Shown piece by piece: positions 92 to 32,185 of a DNA stretch of 33,623 bases. The position numbers were made by a program, and so were the translations under genes. Below the pieces are notes generated by a model. That model made no database searches and was not told where the DNA came from. It saw only the letters and a list, made by a program, of their open reading frames with translations. Position 1 is the first letter of the stretch. Each line of letters opens with the position of its first letter. The stretch is taken from the NCBI GenBank assembly GCA_052055015.1, contig JBQJIT010000002.1, one strand, 5' to 3'. The stretch comes from Malassezia furfur. Taxonomy: Eukaryota.

Positions 92-115
92 CGCGCCTCC
101 ACGACGCGTCGGACC

Positions 116-1223
116 ATGTCTTCGAGCGCGGCCAAGGGCTACCAGTTGCCCTGGTACGTAGCGCTGCATGTGTGCCGCTGACCACAGGGTGGAAAAGTAC
201 CGACCGCGGCGTCTGGAGGATGTCGTGGGCAATGCGCCGACGATCGAGCGGTTGCGTGTGATCGAAGAAAACGGCAACTGCCCGCACCTGCTAGTGTCGG
301 TGCGTGTCGCAGACTCACGCAGGGCCTGCCCGGTATCGGCAAGACGACGAGTGTACATTGCCTTGCGCGTGCCCTGCTGGGTGATGCATACAAGGAGGCG
401 GTGTTGGAGCTGAACGCGTCCGACGACCGGTAGGTATCATGGGCTGACGTGCAGCGGCATCGATGTGGTGCGCAACAAGATCAAGGTGTTTGCCCAGAAA
501 AAAGTGTCGCTGCCCCCCGGGCGGCACAAGATCATCATTTTGGATGAGGCAGACAGGTGGGTGGCACGGCGCTGACGCAGCATGACGCCCGGTGCGCAGC
601 AGGCGCTGCGCCGAACGATGGAGATTTATGCCAACACGACGCGGTTCTGCTTCGCGTGCAATCAGTCAAACAAGATCATTGAGCCGATCCAGAGTCGCTG
701 TGCCATTTTGCGGTTTGGGCGTGTCTCGGACGAGGAGTTGCTGCGCCGGCTGGTGGAGATCTGCAAGGCGGAGCACGTCGAGTACGCCGACGAGGGCCTC
801 GCCGCGATCGTGTTTACGGCCGAGGGCGACATGCGCCAAGCGATCAACAACCTGCAGTCGACGTGGACAGGCCAAGGGTTCGTCAGCGCAGACAACGTGT
901 TCAAGGTGTGCGACCAGCCGCACCCGATGCTGCTGCACGAGCTGCTGACCGCGTGCCACCGCGGCGAGATCGATGCAGCGCTCGACAAGCTCGATGAGGT
1001 GTGGACGCTTGGGTACTCGGCACTGGATATTGTCACGACCCTGTTCCGCGTGGTGAAGACCATGGACGAGCTGCCGGAGCCGGTCAAGCTCGAGTACATC
1101 CGCGAGATCGGCTGGACGCACATGCGCGTGCTCGAGGGCGTCGGCACGCTGCTGCAGCTGAGCGGCCTGGTGGCGCGCCTCGCGAATCAGGCTATGGACC
1201 CACAGCGTTTCGTGATTGCATAA
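116..1223 (+). CDS. RFC4: Replication factor C small subunit (yeast Rfc4 / human RFC2 type), 333 aa
   Basis: Exons 116-153, 188-299, 323-429, 455-556, 581-1223; introns of 34, 23, 25 and 24 nt. Splicing restores PWVEKYRP, Walker [44 protein letters not shown] and the SRC motif. Confidence 0.95.
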
Positions 1224-1272
1224 TGCGTAGCGAGTCCTGCGTTCCATGCACAAAGAGAGCGTGTCTATGTAC

Positions 1273-5412: not shown

Positions 5413-5636
5413 CGTCAAGGCACCGTATCGTCAAGACGGCGGACGTGCGGGGGGGACAGGCACAATCTCCCAGCGAACGGGTCGGTGTGTATACGGAGAG
5501 GATAGGAAGCGCGGCGCGGCGGGTGTAGATGTGCGCCTTGCCACGCGCCGGCGCTCGACCTGCAGATTTTACGCGGGGGGGCACCTGCATCCCGCACTGC
5601 ACTAACCGGCAGGTGCAGCTACCTGCAGCATCTATG

Positions 5637-5656
5637 CACGTGGACCCACGTGGACC
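5637..5656. promoter_or_regulatory. Tandem CACGTGGACC x2 (two E-boxes 10 bp apart) in a divergent promoter
   Basis: Direct repeat seen in the sequence between the ATGs at 5412 (-) and 5683 (+). Function is inferred. Confidence 0.45.
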
Positions 5657-5682
5657 CAACGCCAGGGTTGCGGTGCAACACC

Positions 5683-6503: not shown

Positions 6504-6711
6504 CAACAAAAAGTGTTATTCACGTGACCAACGCGACGCGTCTGCCCGTTCTGTTTGTTGGGCTCGGCCGAAGAGAGTGTTGTGTTGCGCGGATCGGCGA
6601 GGCCTCCATCTTCTTGCAGCTGCAATCTCCCCAGAGCCGGTGCGGCCGCGCTCACTTGCACGGCTTGTTGTGGACTCGGACGCCGAAGTCGCAACCCTAT
6701 TTGTGCACAAG

Positions 6712-8616
6712 ATGCTGCCGAGTCCTGCGTTAGAATCGAGCAGCGGCGCGCTCCCGTCGCGCGAACCGTGGATGTGGGCCGCGCCGCCGATGGCCGGTGC
6801 GGGCGGGATCTCGGGTCCCAACACAGCAGCGTATTGGGACATGAGTGCCGCCGAGCGTACCGGCGGCTCCCCTTCACGCTATTCCATGTATCGTCCAGAC
6901 GCAGAGCATGCGCAGTTCTTTGCGCATCATCCCCACGCTGCGTCGGCACCCGCTGCGTCGCAATTCTTTTCCGCACCGCCCGCGCCCATGCTTCCCTATG
7001 GCATGCCCATGCACCCCGAGCTCATGCAGCATCTCCACCGTATGGGCGGTGGTGGCATGAACGGATACGCATTTATGCCCATCCCCGGCTACTCCATGGT
7101 CGACCATGCTCAGATGCCGATGTTGATGCACATGCCCCCCATGGGCAGCACCCCCTACCGCTTTGGCTCCGACGAAAAGACGCCGGGGCTGCTTGGACTC
7201 GATGCCGATCGCCGCGATGCGTCGCTCGAGGAAGCTTGGGACCGCCTGCGCTCCGAGGAGCCAGACCCACGTGATCATAACATGGAGGAGCTGCTGGCGC
7301 TCTCGCGCCAGGCGCAACTTGAGGCCGGCGGAAATACCAACGTGTTTGTGTGCCCGCACTGCGAAAAGCGCTATGTGGGAAAGCATGCGCGGAGCATTTG
7401 GCGCCGCCATCTGCAGGACAAGCACGCGATTCCCCTCAGCGTTCAACCCCGGCGGACGCGCTGGGACCGCGACGCGAACCGCCCGCGCAACGCTGAGGAG
7501 CGCCGCGAGCGCATGTTGGAGAGCAAGCGTCGGTGGGCGCGTAAGAAGCGCGAGCAGGAGCGCCGCGCCGCGAGTGCCGGGCGCGCCGAGTCGGAGAACC
7601 CGACCGAGACCCCTGCGCCGGAAGAGACCAAAGCCCCGTCTCCACCGACGCCCGTGCGCCCGACGCCCAAGCGTCCCGCCCTGGCGTCACGCGACCTCAA
7701 TGTGCCCGTGCACCGTGCCGAGCTGGTCAAGTCGCCGGCCGAGTCCAAGATTGCGTCGCCGATGCGCCTGCTGCACTCGACACCGCTTCGCGAGTGGCCT
7801 GCGCCGCCGGTCGCGCGCAGTCCCGAGCCAGGGCACGAGCCGATGAAGCGCACCACGGCGGCGCCCGCGTCGCTGAGCAAGCGCAGCGCGCTGGACCGTG
7901 CTGCGCTCGCCTCCTTTTCGCGTGTGGAGCCGTCCCCACGTGTATTCCCCCCGTCTGCGAGCAAGTTCGAGTCGCGCCTGGCATACAGCGACTTGCAGGG
8001 CAGTCCGCTGGCGCCCTCGCTGAAGCGCGACGGGCGCACGGGCGATCAGTTCTCGAGCCCACAACACCTGAACCTCACCCATTCGCTTGGACTTGCGCCC
8101 CACTCAGCGTCGAAGAACAGCGGCAACTTCGGCGGAATGTACCCGGGTGTAAGCATGACGCCCATGCAGGGCGGCATTACGCCGTACACCAAGATGCCCC
8201 TCGGCCTCACCCCCACGATCGGCGGCTTGTTGCGCGGCGACATGGCCGGTATGCCGCCGAACGCAGGCGGCTCAACCTTTTTGCAGAACGCGGGCGACTT
8301 GTCCATGTCGAGCTATCTGATGAACTACTCGGGCCTCGACACGCCCTCGGTGAATATCGCACGGAGCGCACGGCGCCGGCGCCACGCCGACGCCTCGTTC
8401 CACTCCTCGTCCGAACGCGAAGAGGAGGAAGAGTTGAACGACGAGAACGACCAACGCAACGCCTCGCCGTCCATCCGAGCACGCCCGCGGAGCTCGCTCG
8501 CCAAACCACTTACCCACGAGACACCATCCAAGGTGCCCCCTTCTGTGCGCTCCATCAAATTGCCTACACCACGGAGCCCCTGGCATCGCACCCCGCACAA
8601 CCATCGCCTTCGGTAG
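6712..8616 (+). CDS. Mostly low-complexity protein with one C2H2-type zinc finger and a basic helix; putative transcription factor, 634 aa
   Basis: FVCPHCEKRYVGKHARSIWRRHLQDKH followed by RERMLESKRRWARKKR and many S/T-P sites. Start taken as the first ATG after the upstream gene. Confidence 0.7.
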   Translation: MLPSPALESSSGALPSREPWMWAAPPMAGAGGISGPNTAAYWDMSAAERTGGSPSRYSMYRPDAEHAQFFAHHPHAASAPAASQFFSAPPAPMLPYGMPMHPELMQHLHRMGGGGMNGYAFMPIPGYSMVDHAQMPMLMHMPPMGSTPYRFGSDEKTPGLLGLDADRRDASLEEAWDRLRSEEPDPRDHNMEELLALSRQAQLEAGGNTNVFVCPHCEKRYVGKHARSIWRRHLQDKHAIPLSVQPRRTRWDRDANRPRNAEERRERMLESKRRWARKKREQERRAASAGRAESENPTETPAPEETKAPSPPTPVRPTPKRPALASRDLNVPVHRAELVKSPAESKIASPMRLLHSTPLREWPAPPVARSPEPGHEPMKRTTAAPASLSKRSALDRAALASFSRVEPSPRVFPPSASKFESRLAYSDLQGSPLAPSLKRDGRTGDQFSSPQHLNLTHSLGLAPHSASKNSGNFGGMYPGVSMTPMQGGITPYTKMPLGLTPTIGGLLRGDMAGMPPNAGGSTFLQNAGDLSMSSYLMNYSGLDTPSVNIARSARRRRHADASFHSSSEREEEEELNDENDQRNASPSIRARPRSSLAKPLTHETPSKVPPSVRSIKLPTPRSPWHRTPHNHRLR

Positions 8617-8656
8617 CCGTGTATTTTGTAATCCCTTTCCTTTGTCTTTGCTCCAC

Positions 8657-9676
8657 ATGGCCTTGGCGCGACTCGCGGTGTATGAGGCGCTCGGTGCACA
8701 GCGCCGGTGCCTCGACCTGCGCGCCGACGTCTCAGCAGGGCATCTTCGGCATGCCGTGCATGTCGCGCGCCTTGCATCGCTCAAGGCACGCTTCAGTACC
8801 TTGCCCAAACGCGGCGTACCGTTTCTGGTCGTGTGCGACGGCGAGGAACTTGCGGACGTCGTCCATGCCTTTGTCCCGCCTGAGCGGTGGAATATTGTGG
8901 CGATCCTGGGCATTGGCGCTCGCGATGCACCGCCGTGTGTACACCCGTGCTACGCGCTGTCGTGGGACGCACTCCGTGCGTGGGCTGTCGAGCGAGATGA
9001 ATGGACCACGGCGCACGATCCGCACCTCCTCTTTTCGCCCGCACCCGTTGTCGAACGCGTACTGCAGGGATGGGAGCCGCCGTACGATGCATGTCTTCTG
9101 GACATGGGGTGCGGCGCAGGGCGCGACGTCACCTACCTTCTTGTGGAAGGGCGTCGTCGGTCGGCGGCCTGGCGCGCGACCGCCGTCGATCGCTGGCGTG
9201 CTGCGCTCGACCGTGCCGCACTTCTGTTGCGCGACAACAACCTCCTAGAGGGCTCCGGTGCGCGTGCTGATGCGCTCCTGCCCATGAGTGTGCTCGACGA
9301 CGGGCAGGTGCAGCTCCATGGGCGCCGCTTTGCGTTCGCCGATGCGCCGCTCCCGCACACAAGCTATACCCTCATTTTGCTCATCCGGTTCTGGCACAGA
9401 CCACTGTTAGAGGCACTTCCGGCGCGTACAGCGCCCGGAACCCGCGTGGTGCTGAGCCACTTTGTGCACACCCCTGAGCAGATCGACGTGCCGCGTACCG
9501 CAACGTTTGTCGCCTACGAATCGCCGCCGCCGTCGGCACGCATCCAACCGGGTGACGTGGATACCCTACTTGCGCTCTGGAATAAGCACCAGTGCTGGCA
9601 CACCATAGACAACCGCATCGAGCCCGTCGAGGACGGTCGGCCCGTGCAGAGCGTCGTGCTGCAGCGGCTTCGGTAG
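8657..9676 (+). CDS. Rhodanese-like domain fused to a class I SAM-dependent methyltransferase (TehB-like), 339 aa
   Basis: N-terminal LDLR....GHLRHAVH...LP.R..PFLVVCD pattern (rhodanese-like), motif I LLDMGCGAGRD and ATAVD. Intronless. Confidence 0.7.
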   Translation: MALARLAVYEALGAQRRCLDLRADVSAGHLRHAVHVARLASLKARFSTLPKRGVPFLVVCDGEELADVVHAFVPPERWNIVAILGIGARDAPPCVHPCYALSWDALRAWAVERDEWTTAHDPHLLFSPAPVVERVLQGWEPPYDACLLDMGCGAGRDVTYLLVEGRRRSAAWRATAVDRWRAALDRAALLLRDNNLLEGSGARADALLPMSVLDDGQVQLHGRRFAFADAPLPHTSYTLILLIRFWHRPLLEALPARTAPGTRVVLSHFVHTPEQIDVPRTATFVAYESPPPSARIQPGDVDTLLALWNKHQCWHTIDNRIEPVEDGRPVQSVVLQRLR

Positions 9677-9694
9677 CCTCCACATTTCCCCTCC

Positions 9695-11915
9695 ATGGCG
9701 CTCGTGTAGGTGACGCGCTGATGCAGCTCCGTCGCGACCTGCTCGCTAAACCAGTGGGCCCTGGACTTTGACGGCAACCGCGACCGGATCGCGGCTTCGA
9801 TCCGTGCGGCCAAAGCGCGCGGATGCACGCTGCGCCTCGGACCTGAGCTGGAGATTTCGTAGGTGCATGCACTGACGCAGGGGATACGGAGTACGCTGCC
9901 ACGCGCGCTGACCCAGTGCTATGACCACTTCCTTGAACACGACACCGAGACGCACTGCTGGGAGGTGCTGGCCGAGCTTTTGAGCTCGGACCTCACCGAC
10001 AACATCCTGTGCGATGTTGGCATGCCGATCCTGCACCACTCGGTCCTGTACAACTGCCGCGTGATGATCGCCAACCGCCGCGTCGTACATGTGCGCCCAA
10101 AGATGTGGCTGGCTAATGACGGCAACTACCGCGAGATGCGCTGGTTCACGCCATGGATGCGCCCGCACGTCGTCGAGGACTACCGCCTGCCGCCGTGCAT
10201 CACCGATATCACGGGCCAGAGCCAAGTGTCGTTTGGCGACGCGCTGATCTGCACGAACGACACGGTTCTGGGCGTGGAGCTGTGTGAGGAGCTCTTCACG
10301 TCGGCAAGCCCCCACATCGTTCAGGGATTGCACGGCGCCGAGATCATTCTCAATGCGAGTGGAAGCCACCACGAGCTGCGCAAGTTGCACCGCCGTGTCG
10401 AGCTGATCAAGGAAGCAACGCTCAAGTCGGGCGGTGTGTACCTCTACGCCAACCAGCGTGGTTGTGATGGTGACCGCCTTTACTACGACGGATGTGCACT
10501 GATCGCCGCGAACGGCGCCATTGTCGCCCAGGGTGCGCAGTTTGCGCTTGACGAGGTCGAGGTTGTGAGTGCGACCGTCGACCTCGCCGAGGTGCGTGCG
10601 CACCGCACTGGCAAGAGCCGCGGGATGCAAGCCGCGTGGATGCAGAGCGGACACCTCGGCGTGTTCCCCGGCGGCCCGGCGCGTGTGGCCGTCGACATTA
10701 CGCTCTCGCGCACACGGGCGTATGACGAGGCGCCCACGCCGCCGATGGATGTGCACTACTCCACGCCCGAAGAAGAGATTTCCCGTGGGCCCGCGTGCTG
10801 GTTGTGGGACTATCTGCGCCGCTCCCGTACGCAGGGATTCATGTTGCCGCTCTCGGGCGGAATCGACTCGTGTGCGACGGCGACGATCGTGTATAGCATG
10901 TGTCGCATCGTGCACAAGGCGTGCGCGGAGGGTAACGATCAGGTCCTCGCCGACGTGCGTCGCATCGCGGGGGCCGACGCGCCATGGGTGCCCGCGTCTC
11001 CGCAGGACATTGCGCACCGCGTCTTTGTCACCTGCTACATGGGCACCACCAACTCGAGCAAGGAGACACGCGCGCGCGCCGCCCAACTCGCCGAGGCGAT
11101 TGGGTCCTACCACTACAACTTTGATATCGACTCGGTGGTGAACGCAGTCTTGTCGCTGTTCACTTTGGTGACGAAGCGCACGCCGCGCTTCAAGGTACAC
11201 GGCGGGACGCCGGCCGAGAATTTGGCCCTGCAAAACATCCAGGCGCGCTCGCGCATGGTGCTCGCGTACCTCTTTGCGCAGCTTGCACCCTGGGTACAGG
11301 GACGCGGCGGTGGCCTACTTGTGCTCGGCAGCGCCAACGTCGACGAAAGCCTGCGGGGCTACCTGACCAAGTACGACAATTCGTCCGCGGATCTGAACCC
11401 GATCGGGAGCATTTCCAAGACGGACCTGAAGCGGTTCATTGCGTACGCATGCGAGACGTTTGACATGCCAATCCTACGCGAGTTCCTCGAGGCACCGCCC
11501 ACGGCGGAGCTCGAGCCGATCACCGAGACGCACGTCCAGAGCGACGAGGCGGACATGGGTATGACCTACGACGAGCTCTCGGTAATGGGACGCATGCGCA
11601 AGGTCGAGAAGTGCGGGCCGTACTCGATGTTTGTACGCATCGTCCCGTTGTGGACGCCCAGGATGACGCCGATGCAGATTGCCGACAAGATCAAGCTCTT
11701 CTTCTTCGAGTACGCGCGCAACCGGCACAAGATGACCACCCTCACCCCGTCGTACCATGCCGAGTCGTATTCGCCCGACGATAATCGCTTTGATCTACGC
11801 CCGTTCCTCTACCCCAGTCACTTTGCACACCAGTTCCGTAAGGTGTATGCACTCGCTGAAGAGGTACGTCGCCGCACTGACCTAGATGATGCAGCAGCAA
11901 AACAAGCAGACGTAG
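9695..11915 (+). CDS. QNS1: Glutamine-dependent NAD+ synthetase, 709 aa
   Basis: Exons 9695-9705, 9727-9858, 9881-9890, 9917-11863, 11886-11915. Splicing restores [12 protein letters not shown] and GPELEISGYGCYDHFLE. Nitrilase-domain ELCEELF and synthetase motifs PLSGGIDS and [13 protein letters not shown] are present. The last intron rests on splice signals only; the unspliced frame would end at 12034. Confidence 0.95.
9706..9726 (+). other. 21-nt spliceosomal intron (QNS1 intron 1)
   Basis: GTAGGTGACGCGCTGATGCAG. It carries an in-frame TAG and must be removed to join ATG 9695 to the conserved [12 protein letters not shown]. Confidence 0.85.
9881..9890 (+). other. 10-nt microexon of QNS1
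   Basis: GGGATACGGA lies between introns 9859-9880 and 9891-9916 and supplies the conserved GYG of GPELEISGYGC. Confidence 0.88.
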
Positions 11916-13096: not shown

Positions 13097-13122
13097 GGAT
13101 GGGAGTTGGACGGGGAACCTGC

Positions 13123-13129
13123 TGACTCA
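13123..13129. promoter_or_regulatory. TGACTCA (AP-1/Gcn4-type core) in a 48-nt divergent spacer
   Basis: Exact motif between the IFA38 ATG (13096) and the Med25-like ATG (13145). Confidence 0.3.
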
Positions 13130-13144
13130 GCTGTGCCAGGAACC

Positions 13145-15343
13145 ATGGCGGCGGGTGCATCGCCGGCTGTGGTCCAAGAGGATGCGCAGCGTATGCCCGA
13201 GGTGCTCCTCGTCTGCCTCGTGCATGACAGTGCCGCGCTGCGTGCACAATGGTCCGAACTGGACGAGGGCGCGCTTGGGCCGCTCTTTTTCGCGCTCTCG
13301 GCGCTCCAGCGCGACTCGCGGCTGTTGGTCGGCGGGGTCGTGTACCGCTCGGAGCCGAGCAGCGACCTGGACGCACTCGTGCGGCCATACGAGAGCATAG
13401 AGCGCATTACTTTTCTCCCTGCGACGCGCTTCTGTGCACGGATCAAGGAATCGCTGCAATCCAGCGAGGCGTCCCAGCGCCTGCAGCTCGACGCACCGAG
13501 CGAGACCGAGGCACCGCTCGCCGACGCGCTTGCGGCCGCCCTCGAGGTATGTGTGCACTGGTTGACTGACGCAGATGTTGCGTGCACGCGATCCACCGAA
13601 ACATATCGCGCCGTTTGCTCGCGCGGCGCTCCGTGCCAACTTCTCGCCTGTCCTGGCCAAGCACGTCGTGCACGTCTTTGCGCTTGAGCGCGCAGCGGAT
13701 GCACTCCCCATCCGCATCTCGTCTCAGATGCCCATGGTGAATGCCGATGCGCGCTTCGATCGGATGCCGGTGCATGACCTCATCGCCGACCTCAACCAGC
13801 GATCTGTGTCGATCACGACGGTGCTGAGCACCCGCGAGGGCAATGCACGCGCACGCTCAGCAACGGCGCGCAGTGCTCACGAGCTGCTTAGCACGCACTC
13901 TGAGGACCAGAATGTGGACGTGCATGAGCTCCTAGGCGCCCAGTGGAAGCCGCCCCCCCACGTCGAGATCCTCGTGACCGGGGCAGAAGTGGTGCAGGCG
14001 CTGCAGAAAGAGGCACGCACCTCGAACGATGCGATACCCAAGCCCAAGCGGACACGTACGAACGACTCGCCCATGACTACGGCGTCCATGCCACCCACGG
14101 CCAAGGCCGACCCGGCGCTCTTCAACAAGCTGATGTTGCTCCAGCAGCAGCAGTCGACCATGCTGAAAAACCTGACTCAAATCGCCTCGGCCCAGGACTC
14201 ACTGTCCGGTCAGACTGGGCGGGGTGACCATGCGGCGGGCACCAACCTGCAGGGCCAGATGCTCGAGCAGATCCGGCAACAGCGTACGTACCCCTACGAC
14301 TCACCTCAGTGCTTGTGCAGCAGGGTGCCATCAAGCGCCAGGCCGAGCTGCTCCAGAGCGGCAAGCAGCCAAACCTCGACCCGATTTTGCAGTCACTGAT
14401 CAACATCGACAAGGAGGCACGCGAGGCGAGCATTCACCTAGGCGGGCCGAGCAGCATGCTGGGCCAGGTGAAGCCGGCCCCAGCGGCGTCGGCCGTGCCT
14501 GCTCCGGGCGCGCCGCCTGCCACCAACGACGCCAAGCCGCGTGCCTTCTGGCAGGGCCTCATCAAATGGGGCTCGTCTGGCCAGAACGATGACAACATGT
14601 TCACCCTCGTGGTCGCGTCTGCGATGCATTTCCAAGCGGTGCAGCACTCGCTGGCCCTACCTTGGCCCAACTTGATGAGCATCAGCGCATTCGTGCCCGC
14701 AGCGCCCAACGTGCTGCAGCAACTCATCACCTCGAGACGTGTGCCGTGTGCGCTCCTTTCGCTCCGGCCCTTTCCGCCGAACATGGCGATCCGAGGCGCC
14801 GAAAACAACGAGCAAAACTATCGCATGCTCGCTGCGACGCTGCTGCAGAACCAACGCGCGGCCTACATTCCGCACGGCGAACCCAACTGCGGACTGCTCC
14901 TTGCCTCGGTGGCGCGCCGCTCAGGCGGTGCTCCGCAACTTTTGGCGCTCGTGTTCCAAACGCCGATCCCCCTAAACCAGCTGGCTGTGCAGCCGTCCGG
15001 CAGTATGACGGCCAATACACGCGGGATGATTTCGGTGCCACAGCCACAAAGTATACCCACGCCTACGACACAACCTACGGCATTTCCCACGCAGGACCCT
15101 CTGGCTGCCTCCCACATGGCCCCTGTCGTGTCGAACGCGTTCCCCCCCGCGATGCCAGCGGCGCCGCAAGGCAATCTCATGTCACAGCTGTTCGGCAACC
15201 GGTCGATGCCAGAGCAGCCCATCGACCCCCAGTCCGCACTCATTCAGAACCTACTTGGGCAGGCGCAAAGTGCTTCGGCCCAAGCCAGCAACCATGCGTC
15301 GTGGCCGGGTGACCCGATGCTGTCGATGAACTTAGGTTTGTAA
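13145..15343 (+). CDS. Putative Mediator subunit 25-like protein (VWA-like N-terminus, ACID/PTOV-like domain, Q/P-rich tail), 714 aa
   Basis: Exons 13145-13546, 13575-14283, 14310-15343 (introns 28 and 26 nt). Motif resemblance judged by eye: PLADALAAALEML, AFWQGLIKW, PWPNLMSI. The gene model is better supported than the family call. Confidence 0.6.
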
Positions 15344-15379
15344 AACCGTAGGCGGCCCCACAGTCCTTCCTCCACCTTC

Positions 15380-16280: not shown

Positions 16281-16409
16281 ACGAGTCCCTTCCCTGCAAG
16301 CCTAGTGTACGACGACCGTCGGTAAGCGCGCGTGGCGTGCCCACACGGCGCGCGCCGTCGCGTGGTGCCCCAATATTGCGGGCGCGGTTCTCCGCGTCCC
16401 GCCTCCACA

Positions 16410-18017
16410 ATGCCTGAGTCGACCCAACGGCTCGTGGTCGTGTCGAACCGGCTGCCGGTGACAATCAAGAAGGACGCGTCCGCGCCGGGCGGCTTTGCGT
16501 TTAGCAAGTCTCCCGGTGGGCTCGTGTCCGCACTGCGTGGCACGAAGAAGACGATGGACTTTACGTGGATCGGCTGGCCTGGTATTTCGGTGCCCCCGAG
16601 CAGTTTTCCGTTCATCGAGAAGACACTCAGCGAGGAGTACAACTGCAAGCCTGTGTGGCTCCCTGAAGAACTCGCCGAGCGACACTACAACGGATTCTCC
16701 AACTCAATCCTCTGGCCTCTCTTCCACTACCACCCCGGCGAGATGAACTTTGACGAGGCAAACTGGATCGCCTACCGCGAGGCGAACCGGCGCTTCGCTG
16801 CGACCGTGCGCCAAATTTTGCGGCCAGGCGACCGTGTCTGGGTGCAGGACTACCACCTGATGCTGCTTCCCCTGATGCTCTCAGGCCTGCTCGAGGATTC
16901 GGACATTGACGTGATGGTGCCGGGCGATTGTGCCAAGCTCGGCCTCACATCGGACCTCTACACGGACATTGTGTCCGAGTCGATGATGTTCCTCGATGCG
17001 CCGAGCGGTGGGAGCGCAAGCTTGCGGCGCAAAGACATCCACATTGGCTTCTTCTTGCATACCCCCTTCCCAAGCAGTGAAGTGTATCGGTACGTTGCCT
17101 CCTCCTAATCCAGCATTCTTCCCGTTCGCCGCGAGATACTGCTCGGCATCTTACACTGTGACCTGATTGGGTTCCATACGTACGACTATGTCCGCCACTT
17201 TCTGTCGTCGTGCTCCCGCATCCTGGGTCTGCCGACCTTCCCCAACGGTGCCGACTTTTGTGGGCGGCGCGTCCAGGTGCGGACCTACCCCATCGGCATT
17301 GAGCCGCAGCAATTCGAAGAGGCGCTCTTGCGCGAGCCTGTACAGAACCGCATTTCTGCGCTGAAACGCCGCTTCGAGGGGGTGAAGATCATTGTCGGGA
17401 TCGACCGGCTTGACTACATCAAGGGTCTGCCACAGAAGCTGCAGGGCCTCGAGACCTTCTTCGAGGACCACCCTGAGTGGATTGGGCGGGCGGTGCTGGT
17501 GCAGATCGCTGTTCCGTCGCGACAGGATGTTGAAGAGTACCAAAACCTGCGCGCCACTGTCAACGAGATGGTGGGCCGCATCAACGGCCGCTTTGGCACT
17601 GTGGAGAGTTTGCCCATCCACCTGTTGTATCGCTCGGTGAACTTTGACGAGCTGTGTGCCCTGTATGCCGTGAGCGATGTGTGTCTCGTCACCAGTACAC
17701 GCGACGGGATGAACCTCGTCTCCTATGAATACGTCGCGTGTCAGCAGGGACGCAACGGTGTCATGATCCTCTCCGAGTTTGCGGGCGCCGCTCAGTCGCT
17801 GAATGGCTCGCTGATTGTCAACCCGTGGGACCGGTTCGCGGTTGCCGACGCGATCCACACGGCGCTCACTATGGACTCGGAGACGCGCGAGAAGAATGCA
17901 GAGAAGCTGCTCCGCTACGTCAAGCGGCACACCGCCTCGTGGTGGGGCCGCAGCTTTGTGGAAGATTTGGGCCGTACACGGTGCGAGGGGATGGGCATGG
18001 CGATAGAACATGTTTAG
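16410..18017 (+). CDS. TPS1: Trehalose-6-phosphate synthase (GT20), 527 aa
   Basis: VVSNRLP, GGLVSAL, HYNGFSNSILWPLFHY, GFFLHTPFPSSEVYR|ILP (24-nt intron 17090-17113), DRLDYIKG, RDGMNLVSYEY. Confidence 0.96.
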
Positions 18018-18026
18018 ATTGGCTCT

Positions 18027-18386
18027 CTACCTCGACGAACAGCATCCCGAGCGCTCGCGCTCGATCTCGGCGGGAGTCTTGAGCCGCAGGCTCAGCGCGT
18101 GGACGCCGCGCTCGAATTCGGGCGCTAGCAGCGCATTCACCGCACGGTGCCGCGCGATCTGCGGCTTTCCCTGAAACTGCTCCGAAACAACTTCCACAAA
18201 AAAGTCTGAGTGAGTGTGTCGACGTACGTGTCTCGCCGTTGCCGCCGTTCTGGGCGGCCATCGCCGCGTGGTGCGCATGCTTGGACGAGCTGCATCAGAT
18301 ATACCCACTTACTCATTGCGGATAAACAGGTGAGAGGGCGCAAACGCATCTGCAATCTTTGCGCGGATGCTGTCTTCGACGGACAT
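18027..18386 (-). CDS. BolA-family protein (BolA1/Uvi31-like), 104 aa
   Basis: Exons 18386-18313, 18289-18228, 18205-18027 (introns 23 and 22 nt). Product contains NDSSKHAHH..GETHFFVEVVSEQF..IARHRAVN..GVHALSLRLKTP. The ORF track shows only fragments. Confidence 0.9.
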
Positions 18387-18491
18387 CACGCTTCGAGACA
18401 CGTAGTAGCGCACACCGCGAAACAAGCCCCCTGGCGTACGCAACATGAAATCGGCGGCGCACGAAACATCCGACACGCTTATGTCATCTAC

Positions 18492-19769: not shown

Positions 19770-19859
19770 GATAGCAGACTGGGAAAGTTAATTCGGGCCT
19801 CGCCGGTCTTATCTGTGCATGGACCACGTGGCACTTTTTTCGCTCCTCCACAGCTGGAA

Positions 19860-21866: not shown

Positions 21867-21930
21867 CTATGAAGATAAGATTTATGCCACGGGGCTAACA
21901 TCGTAGCATGAGCTACAATAGCCAAGCCGC

Positions 21931-22711
21931 ATGGCACTTTCATCTCCGTCTCGACGAGCGCCCGCAATCCCCAGGGGTGTGCGCAAGCGCAGGGAGCGAG
22001 TGACTCTAAAGCCCAGACGTTGTTAAAGACATTAAGGAAGAAGAAAATCTTTGCGCGCGGCCGAATTTATTGCGCACGTGGTCAGGAGCACAGACCACCT
22101 CCGTCCCGCTAAGCCCCATGCCGGTCGCGCCGCCAAGCTCGTCGAGTAGCCGTACATTGCGCAAGTTTCGAGCAGTCCGCTCCCCTGAGAAGTCAAAGAA
22201 TCATGGGAGGGATCACGAAACGTCCGAATTAGCGGTCGAGCGCATCATCACCTCAACGCCCTGGCTCGCAGGCACGCGCCGGCTGGAAGGGGCTACTCGC
22301 ACAGAAATCTATGCACTTGTGAACGATCGCAGCGTCAGTGGACGCGATACCGACCATGAAAGCAGCGATGAGAGTAGAAAGCGCTCTGCGCTGGGAACGA
22401 GACGTGAATCTTCACGAAAGTCGGCGTCCAAGTCGGAATGGGAACATCTGGGGCTCCACAATTTGGGCAAGAAACGCAAAAGTTCGAGTCCGTATGCCAG
22501 TGAGGCCGGGAGTACAGCAGGAAGTGACTCAGAGTCTACGCTTCCCGCATCGCGTGGCTCACGTACACGCCGCATAAGTTCGAGACACAGTACACCTGTC
22601 CGTACTGTCGAGCTGGAAACTTTACCGTCGCGCCTCAATGCGGCGAATGCACCGGCGCATCCGAGCCCACTGGGCACACATGCTATCCTTGCTGAAGATT
22701 CCCCAAAATAA
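21931..22711 (+). CDS. Hypothetical Ser/Arg-rich low-complexity protein; 5' end uncertain
   Basis: Open frame to TAA 22709-22711 fills the gap between NOP9 and the TTL gene. Possible first exon 21931-21976 with a weak 40-nt intron (21977-22016), or an ATG at 22118. Confidence 0.4.
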
Positions 22712-22713
22712 GC

Positions 22714-24003: not shown

Positions 24004-24259
24004 GAGTGGAGGTGAAATGCCACGCACGGATGAGAGGTCTACGCGCGGATTCTTTTCGGCAGCACAACGGCGATGGTCACGGCAAACGGATGGCTAATGG
24101 GTGTATAACTCCAAACGCAATGCATTGCATCGTGGTGTGCCCTTTGTGTTGGCGTATATCCCTAGGCTGTTACCGACCACGCGTGTTGGCCACGTCCGAG
24201 CGAGGCACACATGTGGAGGTGTCACCTTTTCGAGCTCCACCAGTTTCCCGCTCGCCACC

Positions 24260-25018
24260 ATGGTCACGGTCATTGTCGAAGAAGTCACGGACGCGCCTGA
24301 TTCGACGCTGTCGAACGTGCAGCCGTCTCGGATTTCGGAGAGAGAGAGTCTTTCTTCCCTCCTTTACATGCTTGATGACCCCCCCACTAAAGACGCATCC
24401 ATCATCGCCGATATCGACCGACTGATGGACCACGACCTTTTCGCAGACGCCATGGGCCGGCGCCTGCTTGCTGTTCTCGGCCACGACATCGAGGACGAAC
24501 GCCTCCTCGCAGCACAATACCTCCTGGACCATATCGACGCCGCTGACAGTGAAGAGCCGTTCGACGACGAGCGTCCAACCTGGCTGCCGGGCCGTGCGCC
24601 AGGCTCCGCGCTGGGCACGTGGCTCCGGGATCTGGCCTTGGGCTACGACCCATCGCCCGCGTCGTACCGTGTGTTGCCCGGCGGCTACGTATCGTCAATC
24701 GCATACCATGAGGACGATGCGGATGGTGATGTTGAGGAGGATGACGAGGACGAGCTGCTGGGCGAAGACGAGGACTACCTCGACTGGCTTGGCCTCCAAT
24801 TGCTCCACTGCCATTCCGGCATGCCCCCCTATATTATCGATGGCGTACATGAGTCCGGCGATGATACTGCCTCGGTATACACGCTGGAAGCAAGTACGTT
24901 CGTGTCCCCCCACCCCTTGGCGCACTAACCATCAGACGACCTTGACGCAGACCCATTGCTTGGCACGTCGCCGAACCAGCGACCACGTAAGTCGCTCCGA
25001 CTTCAGTCATATTCGTAG
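24260..25018 (+). CDS. Hypothetical highly acidic protein, about 238 aa
   Basis: ATG in GCCACCATGG context; D/E-rich. Probable 42-nt intron at 24894-24935 (GTACGT...CACTAACCATCAG) moves the stop from 24928 to TAG 25016-25018. Confidence 0.6.
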
Positions 25019-26419: not shown

Positions 26420-26548
26420 CGAGTTCAATTCCACGTGTCAGCCCTGGCGTGTCCACTCGAATGTCGGACGCCGGGCGCGTCTTGGCATCCGCGTCGGACG
26501 AAAGCGGAGACTGTGTGGTCCCCCACGGCAGTGCTATGGGCGAGCTCC

Positions 26549-28411: not shown

Positions 28412-28650
28412 GGTGGTCTGATGTTGGGGTCGGACCTCAGATCGCTTAGCCGGTGTGACTCAGAAAAAAAACACCGCATGCCCTAATTTTGATTAAGCCG
28501 CGCATTGCCAAGCCCGGGCCTAAGCGGAGTAAAATCGAGGCGGTGGATGCCACCCAAAATGGGCGTTCCCCACGCAATGGCCAGTTGTGTCGCAAGAAAC
28601 AGGTGACGTGAATCTACACACAGAAGTAAAAAAACAAAGAACAAACTACT

Positions 28651-29664
28651 CTATACAGGTCGTGACAGGCTCAAATACGGCGAAGGCGTCGTCGATGCCG
28701 GTGTGCCGTGCGGCATAGACTCGGAGGTGATCCAGCGATCCACCGAGGGGATGCCCGAGGGATTCCGTAGCTGAATATCGCACGCAACGCACGAATTGCA
28801 ATCACGCATCCGCTCGCTCGGCCGCTCGGCGTGAGCGGCATTGTAGGGGCGACCCTGAGTGTGTTTCAAACACCCCGCACACCGGCACACCGGCCCACAT
28901 GTACATGGCGGCACATACGGGCGCGACATATCCGCAGCCTGGGCCAAGAGGCTCATGGTATCCTCGCGCCGGCGTTTGTTGGGCACGTGGGCCTCGTCTT
29001 CGGCCTCGCGGCGCGCACAGCAGCTGCCCGATGCCGTGGCGGGAGGGAGCTGCAGGGGCGGCAGCGAGGTGCGTGCCGGCAGCGTAGTGCGTGCAGGCAG
29101 CGTGTGCTCCTCCTTCACTTCGGGTTTGGGTGCAATCGGCGGCAGCGGAGGCTTACTCGCTTGGGATGGGGCGATCGGCTTTTTGCACTCGGCGCTGGGC
29201 CCGCAGGAGTTGCAGGCGGAGCCACATTCATCCTTGGCACACACCGAGTAGAAGGCGTTGGTGTCGCAGCACGTACAGATCCCTGTGCGCTTACACCGGC
29301 ATGGGTTGAGCAGGTTGGCGAACGAGAGCGGCGACGACGCCGAACGTGCGGAGCTGTCCGGCACGTCGGCGGACGCCTTCGAAGCAGGCGCCGCGTTGGC
29401 TGGGTTGGCGGTGGCGGTGGGATGGTTGCGCTGGGTGCGTGGCTTGGCGTCACAGATGCACCGGGTGTGTCGCCCGGTCTTGAAGCGCTTCTCGCGGCAT
29501 GCTTGGCACTGTGACAGGGGCCGACCGCGCCGCTTGACGACAAGCAGGGGCCCCTTGGACCCGTCCTGGTGTTTGCACGTCGACGCGCGGTGGCCCTGGA
29601 TGCAGGTGGCACACGCGAGCTTCACGGGCGGCTCGGTGGGCGGCGGTGGCTCCGGCGTGGGCAT
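28651..29664 (-). CDS. Copper-fist DNA-binding transcription factor (Cuf1/Mac1/Ace1 family), 337 aa
   Basis: KLACATCIQGHRASTCKH..KRRGRPLSQC copper fist. Cys clusters CRCKRTGICTCC and CTCGPVCRCAGCLKH. An in-frame upstream ATG exists at 29781. Confidence 0.88.
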   Translation of the reverse strand: MPTPEPPPPTEPPVKLACATCIQGHRASTCKHQDGSKGPLLVVKRRGRPLSQCQACREKRFKTGRHTRCICDAKPRTQRNHPTATANPANAAPASKASADVPDSSARSASSPLSFANLLNPCRCKRTGICTCCDTNAFYSVCAKDECGSACNSCGPSAECKKPIAPSQASKPPLPPIAPKPEVKEEHTLPARTTLPARTSLPPLQLPPATASGSCCARREAEDEAHVPNKRRREDTMSLLAQAADMSRPYVPPCTCGPVCRCAGCLKHTQGRPYNAAHAERPSERMRDCNSCVACDIQLRNPSGIPSVDRWITSESMPHGTPASTTPSPYLSLSRPV

Positions 29665-29913
29665 GAGGCAAAAGGCAAGGGACGGCGCCGGCGGACCTGA
29701 CTCCACGCCGACCCAAGGGCCAGTGAAGCAGGCTGAAATTGTGCTTGGCTGCTGCAAACCGGCTTGGGTTGTGCCAATCATGCATCGGTGCCAAGATTTC
29801 CGGTGGCTATATCCCCGCGACCGACCGATTGGCGCGCCGCCAGGCCCGATTCGCGTCACGTGCGTGTCACGCCCTGCTGGCCGGCGGCTGCGCGCGCGGC
29901 GAGGCGACGCGCG

Positions 29914-32132
29914 ATGAGCAGCATGGCGGCCGAGGGCCATGCGCCCAAGATCAAGAACCGTGCGCCGGCGCCGGTGCAGATCACCGCGGAGCAGTTGCTG
30001 CGCGAGGCCCAGGAGAACCAGGAGAAGCCCAAACTCAAGAGCCAGCGGCATCGCATCGAGGATTTTGAGCAGCTCGAAGAATACCGCGCACGGAAGCGCA
30101 CCGAGTTCGAGGATGCCGTGCGCCGGCTCCGGGGGAATGTACGTGCACTCAGCTCACCCAGATGGTCGCGTGGATCCGGTATGCGACGTGGGAAGCGAAC
30201 CAGGGGCTGATGGACCGCTGCCGCTCGGTGTTTGAGCGCGCGCTGGACGTGAATCCCCACCATGTGCCGCTCTGGCTGCGCTACACGGAGCAGGAACTCA
30301 AGATGCGCAACGTGAACCACGCACGCAATCTGTTTGACCGCGCGGTCGCGATCCTGCCGCGCATCGACCAGCTGTGGTACAAGTACGTGCACGTCGAAGA
30401 GCTCCTCGGCAACGTCGCCGGCACGCGCGAGATCTTTGAGCGGTGGATGGGCTGGGAGCCGGACGAGCGCGCGTGGAACGCGTACATCGCATTCGAGGTG
30501 CGCTACAAGGAGCTCGACCGCGCGAGCGCCGTGTGGGAGCGCGCCGTGACATGCCACCCCGAGCCGCGGCAGTGGATCCGGTGGGCAAAATTCGAGGAGG
30601 AGCGCGACCGGCTCGACAAGGCGCGCGACGTCTTCCACATGGCGCTCGACTTCTTTGGCGAGGAGGAGGCGGCGCTCGAGCGCGCCCAGACCGTCTTTAC
30701 CGCGTTCGCCAAGATGGAGACGCGCCAGGCGGAATACGACCGCGCGCGGATGATTTATAAGTATGCGCTCGAGCGGCTGCCGCGCGCCAAGAGCGAGGGC
30801 ATCTACGCGAGCTATACGCGCTTCGAGAAGCAGTTTGGCAATATCCAGGGCGTCGAAGATACCGTCACGCAAAAGCGGCGCCTGCAGTACGAAGAGGAGC
30901 TCGACACGGCGCGCGAGGCGACCAACTACGACACGTGGTTCGACTACACGCGCCTCGAGGAGGACTCGTACCGCGCGCTCGTCGAGCAGGGCGCGCCGCC
31001 GTCGCTGCTTGACGCGGCGCGCGACAAGGTGCGCAGTGTGTACGAGCGCGCGATTGCTCAGACGCCGCCCGCGGACGAAAAGCGGCTGTGGCGCCGGTAC
31101 ATCTACCTGTATCTCCGCTACGCGCTCTTTGAGGAGATCGACACGCGCGACCTCGAGCGCGCCAAGGCGGTGTACGCGTCGGCGGTCGCCGCCGTGCCGC
31201 ACCGCGCGTTTACCTTTGCCAAGCTCTGGCTGGCGTACGCCTACTTTGAGATCCGGCGGCGCAATGTGCAGCTCGCACGCAAGATCCTTGGCACGGCCAT
31301 CGGCCTCGCGCCCAAGCACAAGCTCTTCACCGGCTACATCCAGCTCGAGCTCGAGCTCAAAGAGTTCGACCGCGTGCGCAAACTGTACGAAAAGGCGCTC
31401 GAATGGGACGCCAGCAGCGCCGCGACGTGGGTGCAGTTCGCCGAGCTCGAGCAGAACCTGTACGATTTGGAGCGCGCGCGCGCCATCTACGAGCTCGCCA
31501 TCGAGCAGGCCGAGGCCGAGGCCGGCGGACTCGACATGCCCGAGGTCGTCTGGAAGGCGTACATCGACCTCGAGTTTGCCGAGCGCGAATGGGCGCGCGT
31601 CGATGCGCTGTACGAGCGCCTGCTCGACAAGACCGGGCACGTCAAGGTGTGGATCAGCTACGCCCAGAGCAAGATCTCTGCGGCCATCGCACTCGAGGAG
31701 GATGCGGATGCAGACGCCGAGGAGCAGGCCGAGGCCCAAGGCGCCACCTACGCCCCGAGCGCCGAAGAGCAAGCGGCGCGCGCCGCCCAGCGCGCCGAGG
31801 CGGCCGAGGCGTCGCGCGCGCTGTTCGCGCGTGCCTACGACCGCCTGCGTGCCGACCAGCTCAAAGACGAGCGCGTCGTCCTCCTCGAGGCGTGGAAGGC
31901 GTTTGAGACCGAGCACGGCGACGAGGCGCACGTGGCCGCCGTGCAGGCCAAGTGGCCGCGCGTGGTCAAAAAGCGCCGCGAGATCGCCGAAGGCGCCGGC
32001 GCCACCGAAGAGGTACGTGGCGTGCTCACCCAGTATTACGACCTCGTCTTCCCCGACGAAGAGACGCAGCAGCCCGCGCTCAAGCTGCTCCAGCGCGCCC
32101 ATGCGTGGCGCGCGCAGCAGGCGGCTCCGTAG
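29914..32132 (+). CDS. CLF1: Pre-mRNA splicing factor Clf1/Syf3/crooked neck (HAT repeats), 724 aa
   Basis: [52 protein letters not shown]. Exons 29914-30138, 30162-32012, 32034-32132 (introns 23 and 21 nt). Confidence 0.95.
32013..32033 (+). other. 21-nt in-frame, stop-free intron in CLF1
   Basis: GTACGTGGCGTGCTCACCCAG. Removal restores [11 protein letters not shown]. Confidence 0.82.
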
Positions 32133-32185
32133 TGTGTTGGTGGGGAAATATGCGCTTGCGCCGGTGCGTCGCCGCTCCACCGTGC

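Follow-up and report, generated by a model that had tools for sequence, protein, structure and literature searches.

The metazoan initiator (Inr) has the consensus YYANWYY or BBCABW, and plant promoters carry a 'Y patch', a pyrimidine stretch, sensitive to direction, that lies a few bases before a start obeying the YR rule (C or T, then A or G); the patch is an element of composition with no fixed word and, to our knowledge, has been described solely in plants. Sites of the CreA/Mig1 type (consensus SYGGRG) work in both orientations, further upstream, and on carbon-regulated genes.

Closer to the present case are signals reported from fungi and from genes with very short leaders. Start sites of A. 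nidulans are TC-rich from −50 to +25 with a TT/TC peak near −10, have C at −1 in 63% and A at +1 in 66% of cases, followed by C, and show an A/T peak at −45 to −30 (PMC4046813). In Coprinopsis cinerea, 83% of the canonical TATA boxes are reported to start at −38 to −31, most commonly at −34 (PMC12230235). Microsporidia, including Encephalitozoon cuniculi, have a CCC-like motif immediately before their start codons, and 5′UTRs of less than 7 nt were shown there by RACE (PMC2803860). The mammalian element TISU is single, unidirectional and strictly placed, serves both transcription and translation, includes the AUG at a set position and is recognised by YY1 (PMC2518114).

Here we show that in a 33.6-kb window of a Malassezia genome (the whole stretch of DNA that was analysed, from which all results below are drawn) the hexamer CTCCAC is enriched, is specific for one strand and for the 5′ ends of genes, has flanks of its own and lies within a short zone free of ATG. 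Malassezia is a dominant human skin fungus, and its genome ranks among the most compact of any free-living fungus; the DNA of the window is itself compact and GC-rich. As in the fungal start-site signature described for A. nidulans and C. cinerea, the motif brings a T/C tract, C at −1, A at +1 and C at +2, an AT-rich box starting at −36 to −33 in 5 of 11 copies, and CACGTG boxes in the same promoters. The reported signature differs in that it amounts to a weak preference for two bases (CA, present at 49% of the tight start sites) with mapped starts and much longer leaders, whereas here there is an exact word of 6–7 bases and the starts are predicted from sequence. With the microsporidia the window shares a compact genome of the fungal lineage, a C-rich coding-strand word just before many starts, leaders of a few nucleotides (predicted here, measured there), overlapping transcription of neighbours and a use in correcting start calls; the microsporidian signal is, however, a different word in an unrelated lineage, a C triplet preceded by an AAATTT-like signal where some CTCCAC copies have an AT-rich box of other sequence, and is an analogue of CTCCAC and not a homologue. 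Like TISU, CTCCAC is unidirectional and close to the ATG, with leaders that would be very short and possibly a dual role in DNA and RNA, but it never includes the ATG, its spacing varies and its sequence is another. With the metazoan Inr it has in common a pyrimidine-pyrimidine-A core and strand specificity; when the nine start-proximal copies were scored against the two consensuses, one matched YYANWYY in full and five matched BBCABW. The plant Y patch differs from CTCCAC in lacking a fixed word. The earlier note that first picked out the motif knew of no description of it, and we likewise found none for this word in Malassezia among open-access papers and bioRxiv preprints, nor any mapping of Malassezia transcription starts in the same sources.

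Results

CTCCAC precedes nine of the 19 start codons of the window

The motif had been reported at nine of 21 complete genes. All nine genes stand, and the coordinate and strand of each site, together with its distance from the ATG and the C or G that precedes it in every case (9/9), were verified in the sequence; the denominator, however, is 19 start codons under our revised gene models. The revision was made because the ORFs beginning at 13145 and 14456 are a single gene joined via a 26-nt intron, the Clf1/Syf1 start is at 29914 and not at 30162, and the copper-fist gene starts at 29664. The starts of NOP9 and of the gene at 8657 were backed by N-terminal alignments with 19 and 17 relatives respectively, and for TPS1 the Pfam domain, which begins at residue 7, supports the start. 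RFC4, QNS1 and the Usp-domain gene have an in-frame stop no more than 13 codons upstream of the start, and in the TTL-family, 'acidic' and 8657 genes the start is the first ATG of the ORF. The start of the small Cys-rich membrane protein is ambiguous, as there is also an in-frame ATG at 32150, and the name 'JTB-like' that it had been given found no support in a Pfam search. Rfam and tRNA scans of the whole window revealed no RNA genes, including no rRNA, and a bacterial promoter and terminator scan of 8400–9800, a method not meaningful for fungal DNA, gave nothing.

At six genes the motif lies on the + strand behind a gene or ORF of the same orientation. Before RFC4 it is at 97–102, 13 nt from the ATG (116) and 5 nt past the stop TAG (89–91) of the upstream ORF; a second, distal copy (79–84, + strand) falls within the final codons of that ORF, and an AT-rich box at 50–60 starts 33 nt upstream of the A of this distal copy. 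For a methyltransferase-like gene, the copy at 8651–8656 abuts the ATG (8657) and lies 34 nt past the stop TAG (8614–8616) of the DUF7137 gene, with an AT-rich, TATA-like box at 8620–8632 (+ strand; −35 to −23 from the A of the motif). For QNS1 the motif (9678–9683) begins 1 nt past the previous stop TAG (9674–9676) and ends 11 nt before the ATG (9695). That of the Usp-domain gene (15370–15375; 4 nt before the ATG at 15380) lies 26 nt past a stop TAA (15341–15343), which is overlapped by an AT-rich box at 15337–15346 (+ strand; −37 to −28). TPS1 has its copy at 16403–16408, 1 nt before the ATG (16410) in a 129-nt tandem spacer, with a box at 16371–16378 (+ strand; −36 to −29). The sixth copy (32175–32180) precedes the ATG (32186) of the Cys-rich membrane protein gene by 5 nt and follows the Clf1 stop TAG (32130–32132) by 42 nt, and a box lies at 32145–32152 (+ strand; −34 to −27). 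This last box includes the alternative in-frame ATG at 32150.

The other three genes have the motif in divergent promoters. NOP9 (19846–19851, + strand, 8 nt before the ATG at 19860) shares a 90-nt spacer with ARG1, in which a CACGTG is also present (19825–19830). For the TTL-family gene the copy is on the − strand (24006–24011, 2 nt before the ATG at 24003), and for the acidic protein, to which no family was assigned, it is on the + strand (24235–24240, 19 nt before the ATG at 24260). Together with a distal − strand copy (24213–24218), 16 nt from it and facing TTL, whose ATG is 209 nt away, the latter makes an inverted pair; this distal copy is itself immediately followed by an ATG that opens a 16-codon ORF. 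A further distal copy (29701–29706, + strand) lies in the copper-fist/Clf1 divergent spacer in the sense of Clf1, 207 nt before its ATG (29914).

The frequency of CTCCAC is well above expectation. Over both strands of the window there were 35 copies, compared with 17.7 ± 4.2 (maximum 26) in 100 shuffles, and C or G precedes 24 of the 35 (P = 0.019). The number of genes expected by chance to have the motif end 0–19 nt before the ATG is 0.20 from its frequency in the window and 0.36 from local composition, compared with the nine observed (binomial P from 1e-13 to 2e-11). To correct for the choice of the motif after inspection, all hexamers were counted in upstream windows of 25, 30 and 40 nt: CTCCAC came out top in all three, with nine genes, followed by CCTCCA with six, and in 2000 dinucleotide shuffles per setting the best count for any hexamer was 6–7 genes and never 9. 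One-mismatch variants were not found in positions −30 to −1 of any of the 10 motif-less genes, where 1.5–2.4 would be expected by chance. It had also been noted that every gene less than 60 nt behind a co-oriented neighbour carries the motif, and this is indeed so for all five (spacers of 24, 40, 18, 36 and 53 nt; hypergeometric P = 0.011, post hoc).

CTCCAC is specific for one strand and for gene 5′ ends

Within the window the motif keeps to one strand and is linked to the 5′ ends of genes. Positions −25 to −1 hold nine sense and no antisense copies, positions +1 to +60 hold no sense copy, and all 12 copies outside gene bodies in the first gene table point toward a gene downstream of them. 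Across the six convergent spacers, 749 nt in all, CTCCAC is absent. Of 9 tandem junctions, 6 have a copy no more than 150 nt past the stop; of 12 convergent 3′ ends only 1 does, with about 0.9 expected there by chance. An intron, or a splice or trans-splice acceptor, was considered and rejected: AG occurs between motif and ATG in only 2 of the 9 genes, and a loose 5′ splice-site pattern within 100 nt upstream was seen in 3 of the 9, none of them among those two.

Upstream of the motif the pyrimidine content of the sense strand reaches 0.71 (−10 to −6), and T at −15 to −6 makes up 0.33–0.38, compared with 0.13–0.20 at the 23 copies inside genes. This T/C tract is followed by C(−1) A(+1) C(+2), the C-A-C being given by the motif itself. 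AT-rich hexamers (at least 5/6 A/T) begin −36 to −33 from the A of the motif in 5 of 11 independent copies, a register with P = 0.041 against a circular-shift null, although all five boxes are at tandem junctions, which should also carry 3′ signals belonging to the gene before. These boxes are candidate TATA boxes. Their distance to the upstream stop varies (−43, +4, −6, +94 and +14 nt), and AT-rich stretches come after most stop codons in the window; the three copies in divergent promoters have no AT-rich box in this register. In the seven motif-less genes with a box, the one nearest the ATG was followed by CA 33–36 nt further on in four (ARG1, g22118, DUF7137 and Clf1), a sample too small and too post hoc to build on.

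The region immediately before the start codons is free of ATG. None occurs at −35 to −1 of the 19 genes compared with 4.3 expected, a depletion of which one third is an artefact of picking the first in-frame ATG, and the triplets of the same composition (TGA, GAT, AGT, GTA and TAG) occur 2–7 times each. Further upstream, at −70 to −36, there are 13 ATGs (7.1 expected), several of which start out-of-frame ORFs that extend across the start codon.

Relatives provide a lead on conservation

A search for Malassezia contamination among contigs of bacterial and archaeal genomes, using the NOP9 alignment and Clf1 protein queries, returned nothing usable, the sole match being 38% identical over about 50 residues of a bacterial MAG. 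Four relatives (three distinct NOP9 proteins and a single one related to the 8657 gene) have protein models that extend upstream of the conserved first Met, and in all four a peptide compatible with CTCCAC occurs within 25 residues. The chance of such a peptide is 34% per 25-residue window, and in the present window only 8% of compatible peptide patterns are truly encoded by CTCCAC, so that the peptides may be taken as a lead on conservation only.

Discussion

Two functions had been suggested for the motif, an initiator that gives near-leaderless mRNAs and a signal for translational reinitiation on read-through transcripts. The former fits the anatomy of the motif best because of the strand specificity, the location in 5′ spacers, the T/C tract with C-A-C, the AT box and the ATG-free zone of about 35 nt; that transcription starts at the motif is deduced. 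Our tentative preference is thus to see CTCCAC as a lineage-specific, initiator-type core-promoter word giving leaders of 2–21 nt. CTCCAC, in most cases as S-CTCCAC behind a T/C-rich tract, would be a sharpened, lineage-specific form of the fungal initiator, a pyrimidine tract with C(−1) A(+1) C(+2). RNA polymerase II would start at the A of the motif or a few bases off; where an AT-rich (TATA-like) box exists, this box would lie about 33 nt upstream of the start. The resulting mRNA leaders would be only about 2–21 nt long. The gene could thereby start 18–53 nt past the stop of its neighbour, with a leader free of the neighbour's ATGs.

Several observations fit this less well. A CA-type initiator would be expected to have a degenerate consensus with many near-variants, which CTCCAC does not, and the absence of near-variants from the 10 motif-less genes makes it unlike a degenerate initiator and more like the site of a sequence-specific factor. 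Outside their C-C-A core the canonical initiator consensuses are matched poorly by the nine copies. The leaders of 2–7 nt predicted for five genes also count against it, because AUGs so placed are expected to be scanned past: in Cryptococcus, whose leaders have a median of 105 nt, AUGs closer than 20 nt to the start site are reported to be skipped (PMC7049704). Annotated 5′UTRs of M. sympodialis, which has the fewest uAUGs among 242 fungi, have a median of 33 nt (PMC7889888); these published figures speak for the initiator, yet the median is longer than the proposed 2–21 nt and to that extent counts against it. A bolder version, which we regard as rather doubtful, is that a dedicated exact word, read by a specific factor, replaces the loose fungal initiator in Malassezia. 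Transcription would then begin 2–21 nt before the AUG and yield many capped, nearly leaderless mRNAs, the ribosomes would accept cap-proximal AUGs that other basidiomycetes skip, and a motif right after the stop (of the type TAG-C-CTCCAC-ATG) would permit packing at 18–53 nt. If true, this would be the counterpart in a free-living yeast of the microsporidian solution to genome compaction.

The strict sense bias and the nearness to the ATG could also be accounted for if CUCCAC acted in the RNA, with transcription starting 20–35 nt before the ATG and a protein or the small ribosomal subunit reading the word in the leader; as in TISU, the word might help to find the cap-near AUG, possibly in addition to a role in the DNA. 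This idea seems to us unlikely. An ATG-free zone reaching to about −35, together with the 33-nt median of M. sympodialis, would place the motif within the leader, and an exact, non-degenerate word would be well suited to base pairing or to recognition by a specific RNA-binding protein. A purine is found at −3 in 4 of the 9 motif genes compared with 7 of the 10 others, suggesting that the motif genes may depend less on Kozak context, and TISU provides a precedent (PMC2518114). However, the spacing of 0–19 nt shows no preferred distance, unlike TISU or elements of the Shine-Dalgarno type, and the AT box, where present, is 35–40 nt before the ATG and would therefore leave little room for a start upstream of the motif.

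Promoter compression could also have brought next to the ATG a site bound by a sequence-specific transcription factor, for example one with two C2H2 fingers. This is decidedly improbable, even though the reverse complement, GTGGAG, matches the CreA/Mig1 consensus, the hexamer is exact, without near-variants in the other genes, and the motif is present in only about half of the genes. An orientation bias of 9:0 is unusual for activator or repressor sites and, like the location 0–19 nt from the ATG, is not how CreA/Mig1 sites behave. The genes concerned cover replication, NAD synthesis, trehalose synthesis, ribosome biogenesis and tubulin modification, and with such mixed functions do not resemble one regulon. 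YY1 in TISU admittedly offers a precedent for a zinc-finger site that is fixed in both place and orientation (PMC2518114), but in A. nidulans most CreA-type sites fall between −50 and −100 relative to the start site in the account that also mentions the related SYGGGG (PMC4046813).

It is very improbable that the motif is an intercistronic signal, by which tandem genes 18–53 nt apart would be co-transcribed and the hexamer would aid reinitiation or mark a site of RNA cutting. Reinitiation after ORFs of 340–980 codons is inefficient in known eukaryotic systems, and it cannot be general here because four of the nine motif genes lack an upstream neighbour of the same orientation within 120 nt (NOP9, TTL and 'acidic' have divergent promoters, and TPS1 follows its neighbour at 129 nt); the splice-acceptor count given above likewise speaks against it. 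Reinitiation on read-through RNA is thus disfavoured, and this part of the earlier proposal could hold at most for the five very short tandem junctions. There, the presence of the hexamer at all five is joined by the octamer TCGGTAGC, whose TAG is the stop codon, just upstream at three of them, and these are its only three occurrences in the window. Overlapping UTRs have been reported for M. sympodialis (PMC5389616) and polycistronic transcripts are cited for other basidiomycetes (PMC12230235).

The order stop, AT-rich, T/C-rich and C-A at tandem junctions is reminiscent of a polyadenylation signal with a cleavage site behind it, and the motif might then belong to the 3′ end of the upstream gene and have no connection with the downstream start; as a general explanation this was rejected and we give it almost no weight, since among ends that face another 3′ end the motif occurs at chance level and three copies are in divergent promoters with no same-strand gene upstream. 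Least credible of all is a by-product of C/T-rich upstream DNA (C 0.39–0.42) and a CCACC-type Kozak context such as the nCC(A/G)CC of M. sympodialis (PMC7889888), as, even for a motif chosen after inspection, shuffles of the same windows never exceeded 7 genes per hexamer, and a Kozak-type context would have a fixed −6 to −1 register with a purine at −3, a register found in one of the nine copies only (TPS1), the distances being 0–19 nt.

If the pattern were to hold genome-wide, it would give Malassezia its first defined core-promoter or start-proximal word and could serve as a minimal promoter part for expression tools. It would show how transcription units stay separate with 18–53 nt from one stop to the next start, and would put to the test the translation of mRNAs with leaders of a few nucleotides in a basidiomycete, which the Cryptococcus data make doubtful. 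It would also provide a simple rule to call start codons and to split tightly packed genes, wrong starts and merged neighbours being a known problem of Malassezia annotation (PMC5389616). One such case is in the window itself, where the motif at 32175–32180 argues for the ATG at 32186 over that at 32150.

CTCCAC upstream of start codons

The sense-strand word CTCCAC, ending 0-19 nt before an ATG, was confirmed at all nine sites reported in the earlier note (97-102, 8651-8656, 9678-9683, 15370-15375, 16403-16408, 19846-19851, 24006-24011 on the minus strand, 24235-24240 and 32175-32180), each time preceded by C or G. The distances to the start codons of RFC4, the methyltransferase-like 8657 gene (numbered genes are named by their start positions), QNS1, Usp, TPS1, NOP9, TTL, the 'acidic' gene and the 32186 gene were likewise as reported, at 13, 0, 11, 4, 1, 8, 2, 19 and 5 nt. 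The denominator of that count did not stand, as the present gene models give 19 start codons rather than 21, and nine genes in 19 compares with an expectation of 0.20 from the window frequency of the word or 0.36 from local base composition. Because the word had been chosen after inspection, all 5-, 6- and 7-mers were counted upstream of each of the 19 genes, in windows reaching to -25, -30 and -40. The top hexamer in every window was CTCCAC (nine genes; the runner-up, CCTCCA, was found in six), and when the windows were shuffled 2000 times per setting with dinucleotides preserved, the best hexamer of any kind reached at most seven genes. Composition does not account for the enrichment of the motif, which is real; the window-internal statistics are strong and the reading coherent, on a base of 19 genes from one genome window.

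Start codons were assigned without regard to the motif, and the gene set consisted of these 19 inside the window plus two genes truncated at its ends. The window (GC 0.55-0.69) is densely packed with eukaryotic genes, the Pfam families being RFC small subunit, Tea1-like kelch, DUF7137, glutamine-dependent NAD synthetase, short-chain dehydrogenase, Usp-domain, trehalose-6-phosphate synthase, argininosuccinate synthase, NOP9, TTL-family ligase, TauD-family dioxygenase, bicarbonate-type transporter, copper-fist factor and Clf1/Syf1. RFC4 was started at 116, followed by a 34-nt intron after which the frame resumes into ...VEKYRP..., and Clf1 at 29914, 5' of a 23-nt intron; the ORFs beginning at 13145 and 14456 were taken as a single gene spliced via introns of 28 and 26 nt. 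For the copper-fist gene, whose DNA-binding domain has to lie at the N-terminus, the start was set at 29664. For NOP9 (start at 19860), M1 and R6-R12 were at least 90% conserved in an alignment of 20 sequences; the protein matched exclusively Malassezia, with M. yamatoensis as the best match bearing a species name, at 65% identity, and other records at 94%, 80% and 71%. M1 of the 8657 gene was invariant in 18 aligned sequences, and the GT20 domain of TPS1 begins at residue 7. The starts of the other motif genes are the first in-frame ATG of the ORF or after a stop, except for the 32186 gene, which has a further in-frame ATG at 32150. Its 'JTB-like' label (32186-32629) was not borne out, as Pfam gave no JTB match and only a sub-threshold match to CopD, and the labelling of 22118-22711 as a gene is weak: Pfam gave no match for this ORF of 197 codons, its GC3 of 0.55 is unremarkable, and the model may not represent a gene. 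Introns, with boundaries placed by eye, are extremely short at 21-34 nt (e.g. 155-188, 9706-9726, 17090-17113 and 30139-30161); they open with GTRNGT, carry a branch-like CTSAC box and finish in YAG. The predicted intron of QNS1 (9706-9726) follows the 11th base and, at 21 nt, would be close to the shortest spliceosomal introns known.

Location and orientation of the motif

In the first gene table, the sequence outside gene bodies amounted to 2,604 nt (7.7% of the window) and held 12 of the 35 copies of CTCCAC, six times more than expected. Each of the 12 was in a spacer containing a 5' end and was oriented toward a downstream gene, and the six convergent spacers (749 nt) held no copy. When the first 115 bases were re-read, an ORF upstream of RFC4 was found to stop at a TAG at 89-91 (frame GC3 0.76), so that the distal RFC4 copy at 79-84 lies within the final codons of this ORF, which a spacer of 24 nt separates from RFC4. 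Between -25 and -1 there were nine sense and no antisense copies, and the first 60 nt of coding regions had none. The claim that every tandem junction shorter than 60 nt carries the motif held for all five, namely upstream ORF/RFC4, DUF7137/8657 gene, 8657 gene/QNS1, 13145 gene/Usp and Clf1/32186 gene (24, 40, 18, 36 and 53 nt), compared with one of four longer tandem junctions and three of ten genes in divergent pairs. Within 150 nt after a stop the motif was present at only one of 12 ends facing another 3' end (about 0.9 expected) and at six of nine with a co-oriented gene next, which rules out a general 3'-end signal; a purely intercistronic role is ruled out by the three copies in divergent promoters. 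The motif belongs to the 5' ends of genes.

The TTL/'acidic' divergent spacer contains an inverted pair at 24213-24240, GTGGAG followed after 16 nt by CTCCAC, which may be two back-to-back start elements. The minus-strand copy at 24213-24218 is directly followed by an ATG opening an ORF of only 16 codons. A 45-codon upstream ORF begins 73 nt after the distal Clf1 copy (29701-29706), its TGA stop overlapping the Clf1 start codon (ATGA).

Sequence around the motif

On the sense strand, the sequence preceding the nine proximal copies had a pyrimidine fraction of 0.71 at -10 to -6, and T was at 0.33-0.38 from -15 to -6, against 0.13-0.20 at the 23 genic copies. AT-rich hexamers (at least 5/6 A/T; 2.6% of window positions) began at -36 to -33 from the A of CTCCAC in five of 11 independent copies, namely those of distal RFC4, the 8657 gene, Usp, TPS1 and the 32186 gene. 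This register is of marginal significance (P=0.041 by a circular-shift null allowing for bin choice), and all five boxes in register lie at tandem junctions, in a stretch of genome where AT-rich sequence follows most stop codons. The distance of the boxes to the preceding stop varied (-43, +4, -6, +94 and +14 nt), which suggests that their position is set by the motif rather than by the stop.

No ATG was found at -35 to -1 of the 19 genes against 4.3 expected, whereas triplets of the same composition (TGA, GAT, AGT, GTA, TAG) occurred two to seven times; one third of this depletion is an artefact of taking the first in-frame ATG. At -70 to -36 there were 13 ATGs against 7.1 expected, several of which open out-of-frame ORFs that cross the start codon. 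The remaining depletion points to leaders that are seldom longer than about 35-40 nt in this genome.

CACGTG was not enriched overall (17 copies against 18.9 expected in the window), and six of the 17 lie within about 1.85 kb of promoter-containing spacers (5637-5652, 19825-19830, 22075-22080, 26432-26437 and 29857-29862), two of them in tandem ahead of DUF7137. Only 48 nt (13097-13144) separate the divergent starts of the dehydrogenase (13096, minus strand) and the 13145 gene; this spacer contains TGACTCA, an AP-1/Gcn4-type sequence, and both genes lack CTCCAC.

Possible functions of the motif

We tentatively read CTCCAC as an initiator-type core-promoter word, which it may quite possibly be. 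Transcription would begin at its A or close by, some 33 nt 3' of a TATA-like (AT-rich) box where one is present, with predicted leaders of 15, 2, 13, 6, 3, 10, 4, 21 and 7 nt for the nine genes; a gene could then follow directly on the stop codon of its neighbour with a leader free of upstream ATGs. Several observations weigh against this. One-mismatch variants were present in none of the ten motif-less genes (1.5-2.4 expected), the word being all-or-none; the initiator consensuses YYANWYY and BBCABW are matched by only one and five of the nine copies; and the register of the AT-rich boxes is marginal. In addition, Cryptococcus is reported to skip AUGs less than 20 nt from the start site (PMC7049704), and the predicted leaders are shorter than the annotated M. 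sympodialis median of 33 nt (PMC7889888).

In 5'-specific RNA-seq of A. nidulans, the sense strand is described as TC-rich from -50 to +25 with a TT/TC peak near -10, start sites have C at -1 (63%), A at +1 (66%) and then another C, A/T peaks at -45 to -30, and CACGTG peaks about 70 nt upstream (PMC4046813). Canonical TATA boxes in C. cinerea, a basidiomycete, are reported to begin at -38 to -31 in 83% of cases, with a mode of -34 (PMC12230235). Provided that transcription starts at the A of CTCCAC, the word and its flanks in Malassezia would be a sharpened copy of this measured fungal picture. The nearest known counterparts are the fungal CA-initiator signature, a microsporidian motif and TISU; the CA-initiator signature has the same anatomy but is a weak preference with long leaders, not a fixed word. 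The M. sympodialis annotation covers 5'UTRs for 41.55% of genes (medians elsewhere: C. neoformans 94, S. cerevisiae 53 and S. pombe 173 nt), and this species is stated to have the fewest uAUGs among 242 fungi, with a start context of nCC(A/G)CC (PMC7889888). Together with an assembled M. globosa NDK1 transcript whose 5' end is 25 nt before the ATG (PMC12506658), these data independently indicate short leaders for the genus. A CCC-like start-proximal motif follows the same logic in another compact genome, that of microsporidia, with a different word; leaders there of less than 7 nt were proven by RACE (PMC2803860). We found no description of the CTCCAC word and no start-site mapping in the Malassezia literature (open-access papers and bioRxiv).

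A less probable, though still appreciable, alternative is an RNA-level leader element that would help to select the AUG when leaders are short, with a function like that of TISU, which is likewise unidirectional and serves short leaders but contains the AUG (PMC2518114). The exactness of the word and the ATG-free zone of about 35 nt would suit such an element; its variable spacing to the ATG and the AT-rich boxes just 35-40 nt from the ATG would not. A zinc-finger factor site is unlikely: GTGGAG matches SYGGRG, the CreA/Mig1-type pattern, but the orientation is 9:0 and the functions of the motif genes are mixed. An intercistronic or reinitiation signal would accommodate the short tandem junctions and the octamer TCGGTAGC, whose three copies all place a stop-codon TAG just upstream of a motif, but it does not account for four of the nine motif genes and is very improbable. 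A 3'-end signal, with convergent ends at chance level, is hardly credible, and chance or composition, with no shuffled hexamer in more than seven genes, least of all.

Gene ends

The TPS1/ARG1 convergent spacer (18018-18491) is 474 nt long, compared with 2-90 nt for the other convergent spacers, and contained no Rfam family, no tRNA and no ATG-started ORF of at least 100 codons. Among 21 gene ends (e.g. 1221-1223, 8614-8616, 9674-9676, 15341-15343 and 32130-32132) the stop codons were 12 TAG, nine TAA and no TGA, in a genome of about 62% GC; the chance of finding no TGA under equal usage is about 2e-4. As no gene in the window has an in-frame TGA, this looks like avoidance rather than reassignment. 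Exactly three copies of TCGGTAGC occur in the window (85-92, 8610-8617 and 9670-9677, all on the plus strand), in each of which the TAG is the gene's stop codon and a start-proximal CTCCAC follows 4-33 nt downstream. At least three copies were obtained in seven of 100 shuffles, so that the count alone is not significant and it is the placement that stands out. The 11-mer CTTCGGTAGCC is common to the ends of two consecutive genes, both of which end ...Arg-Leu-Arg-stop.
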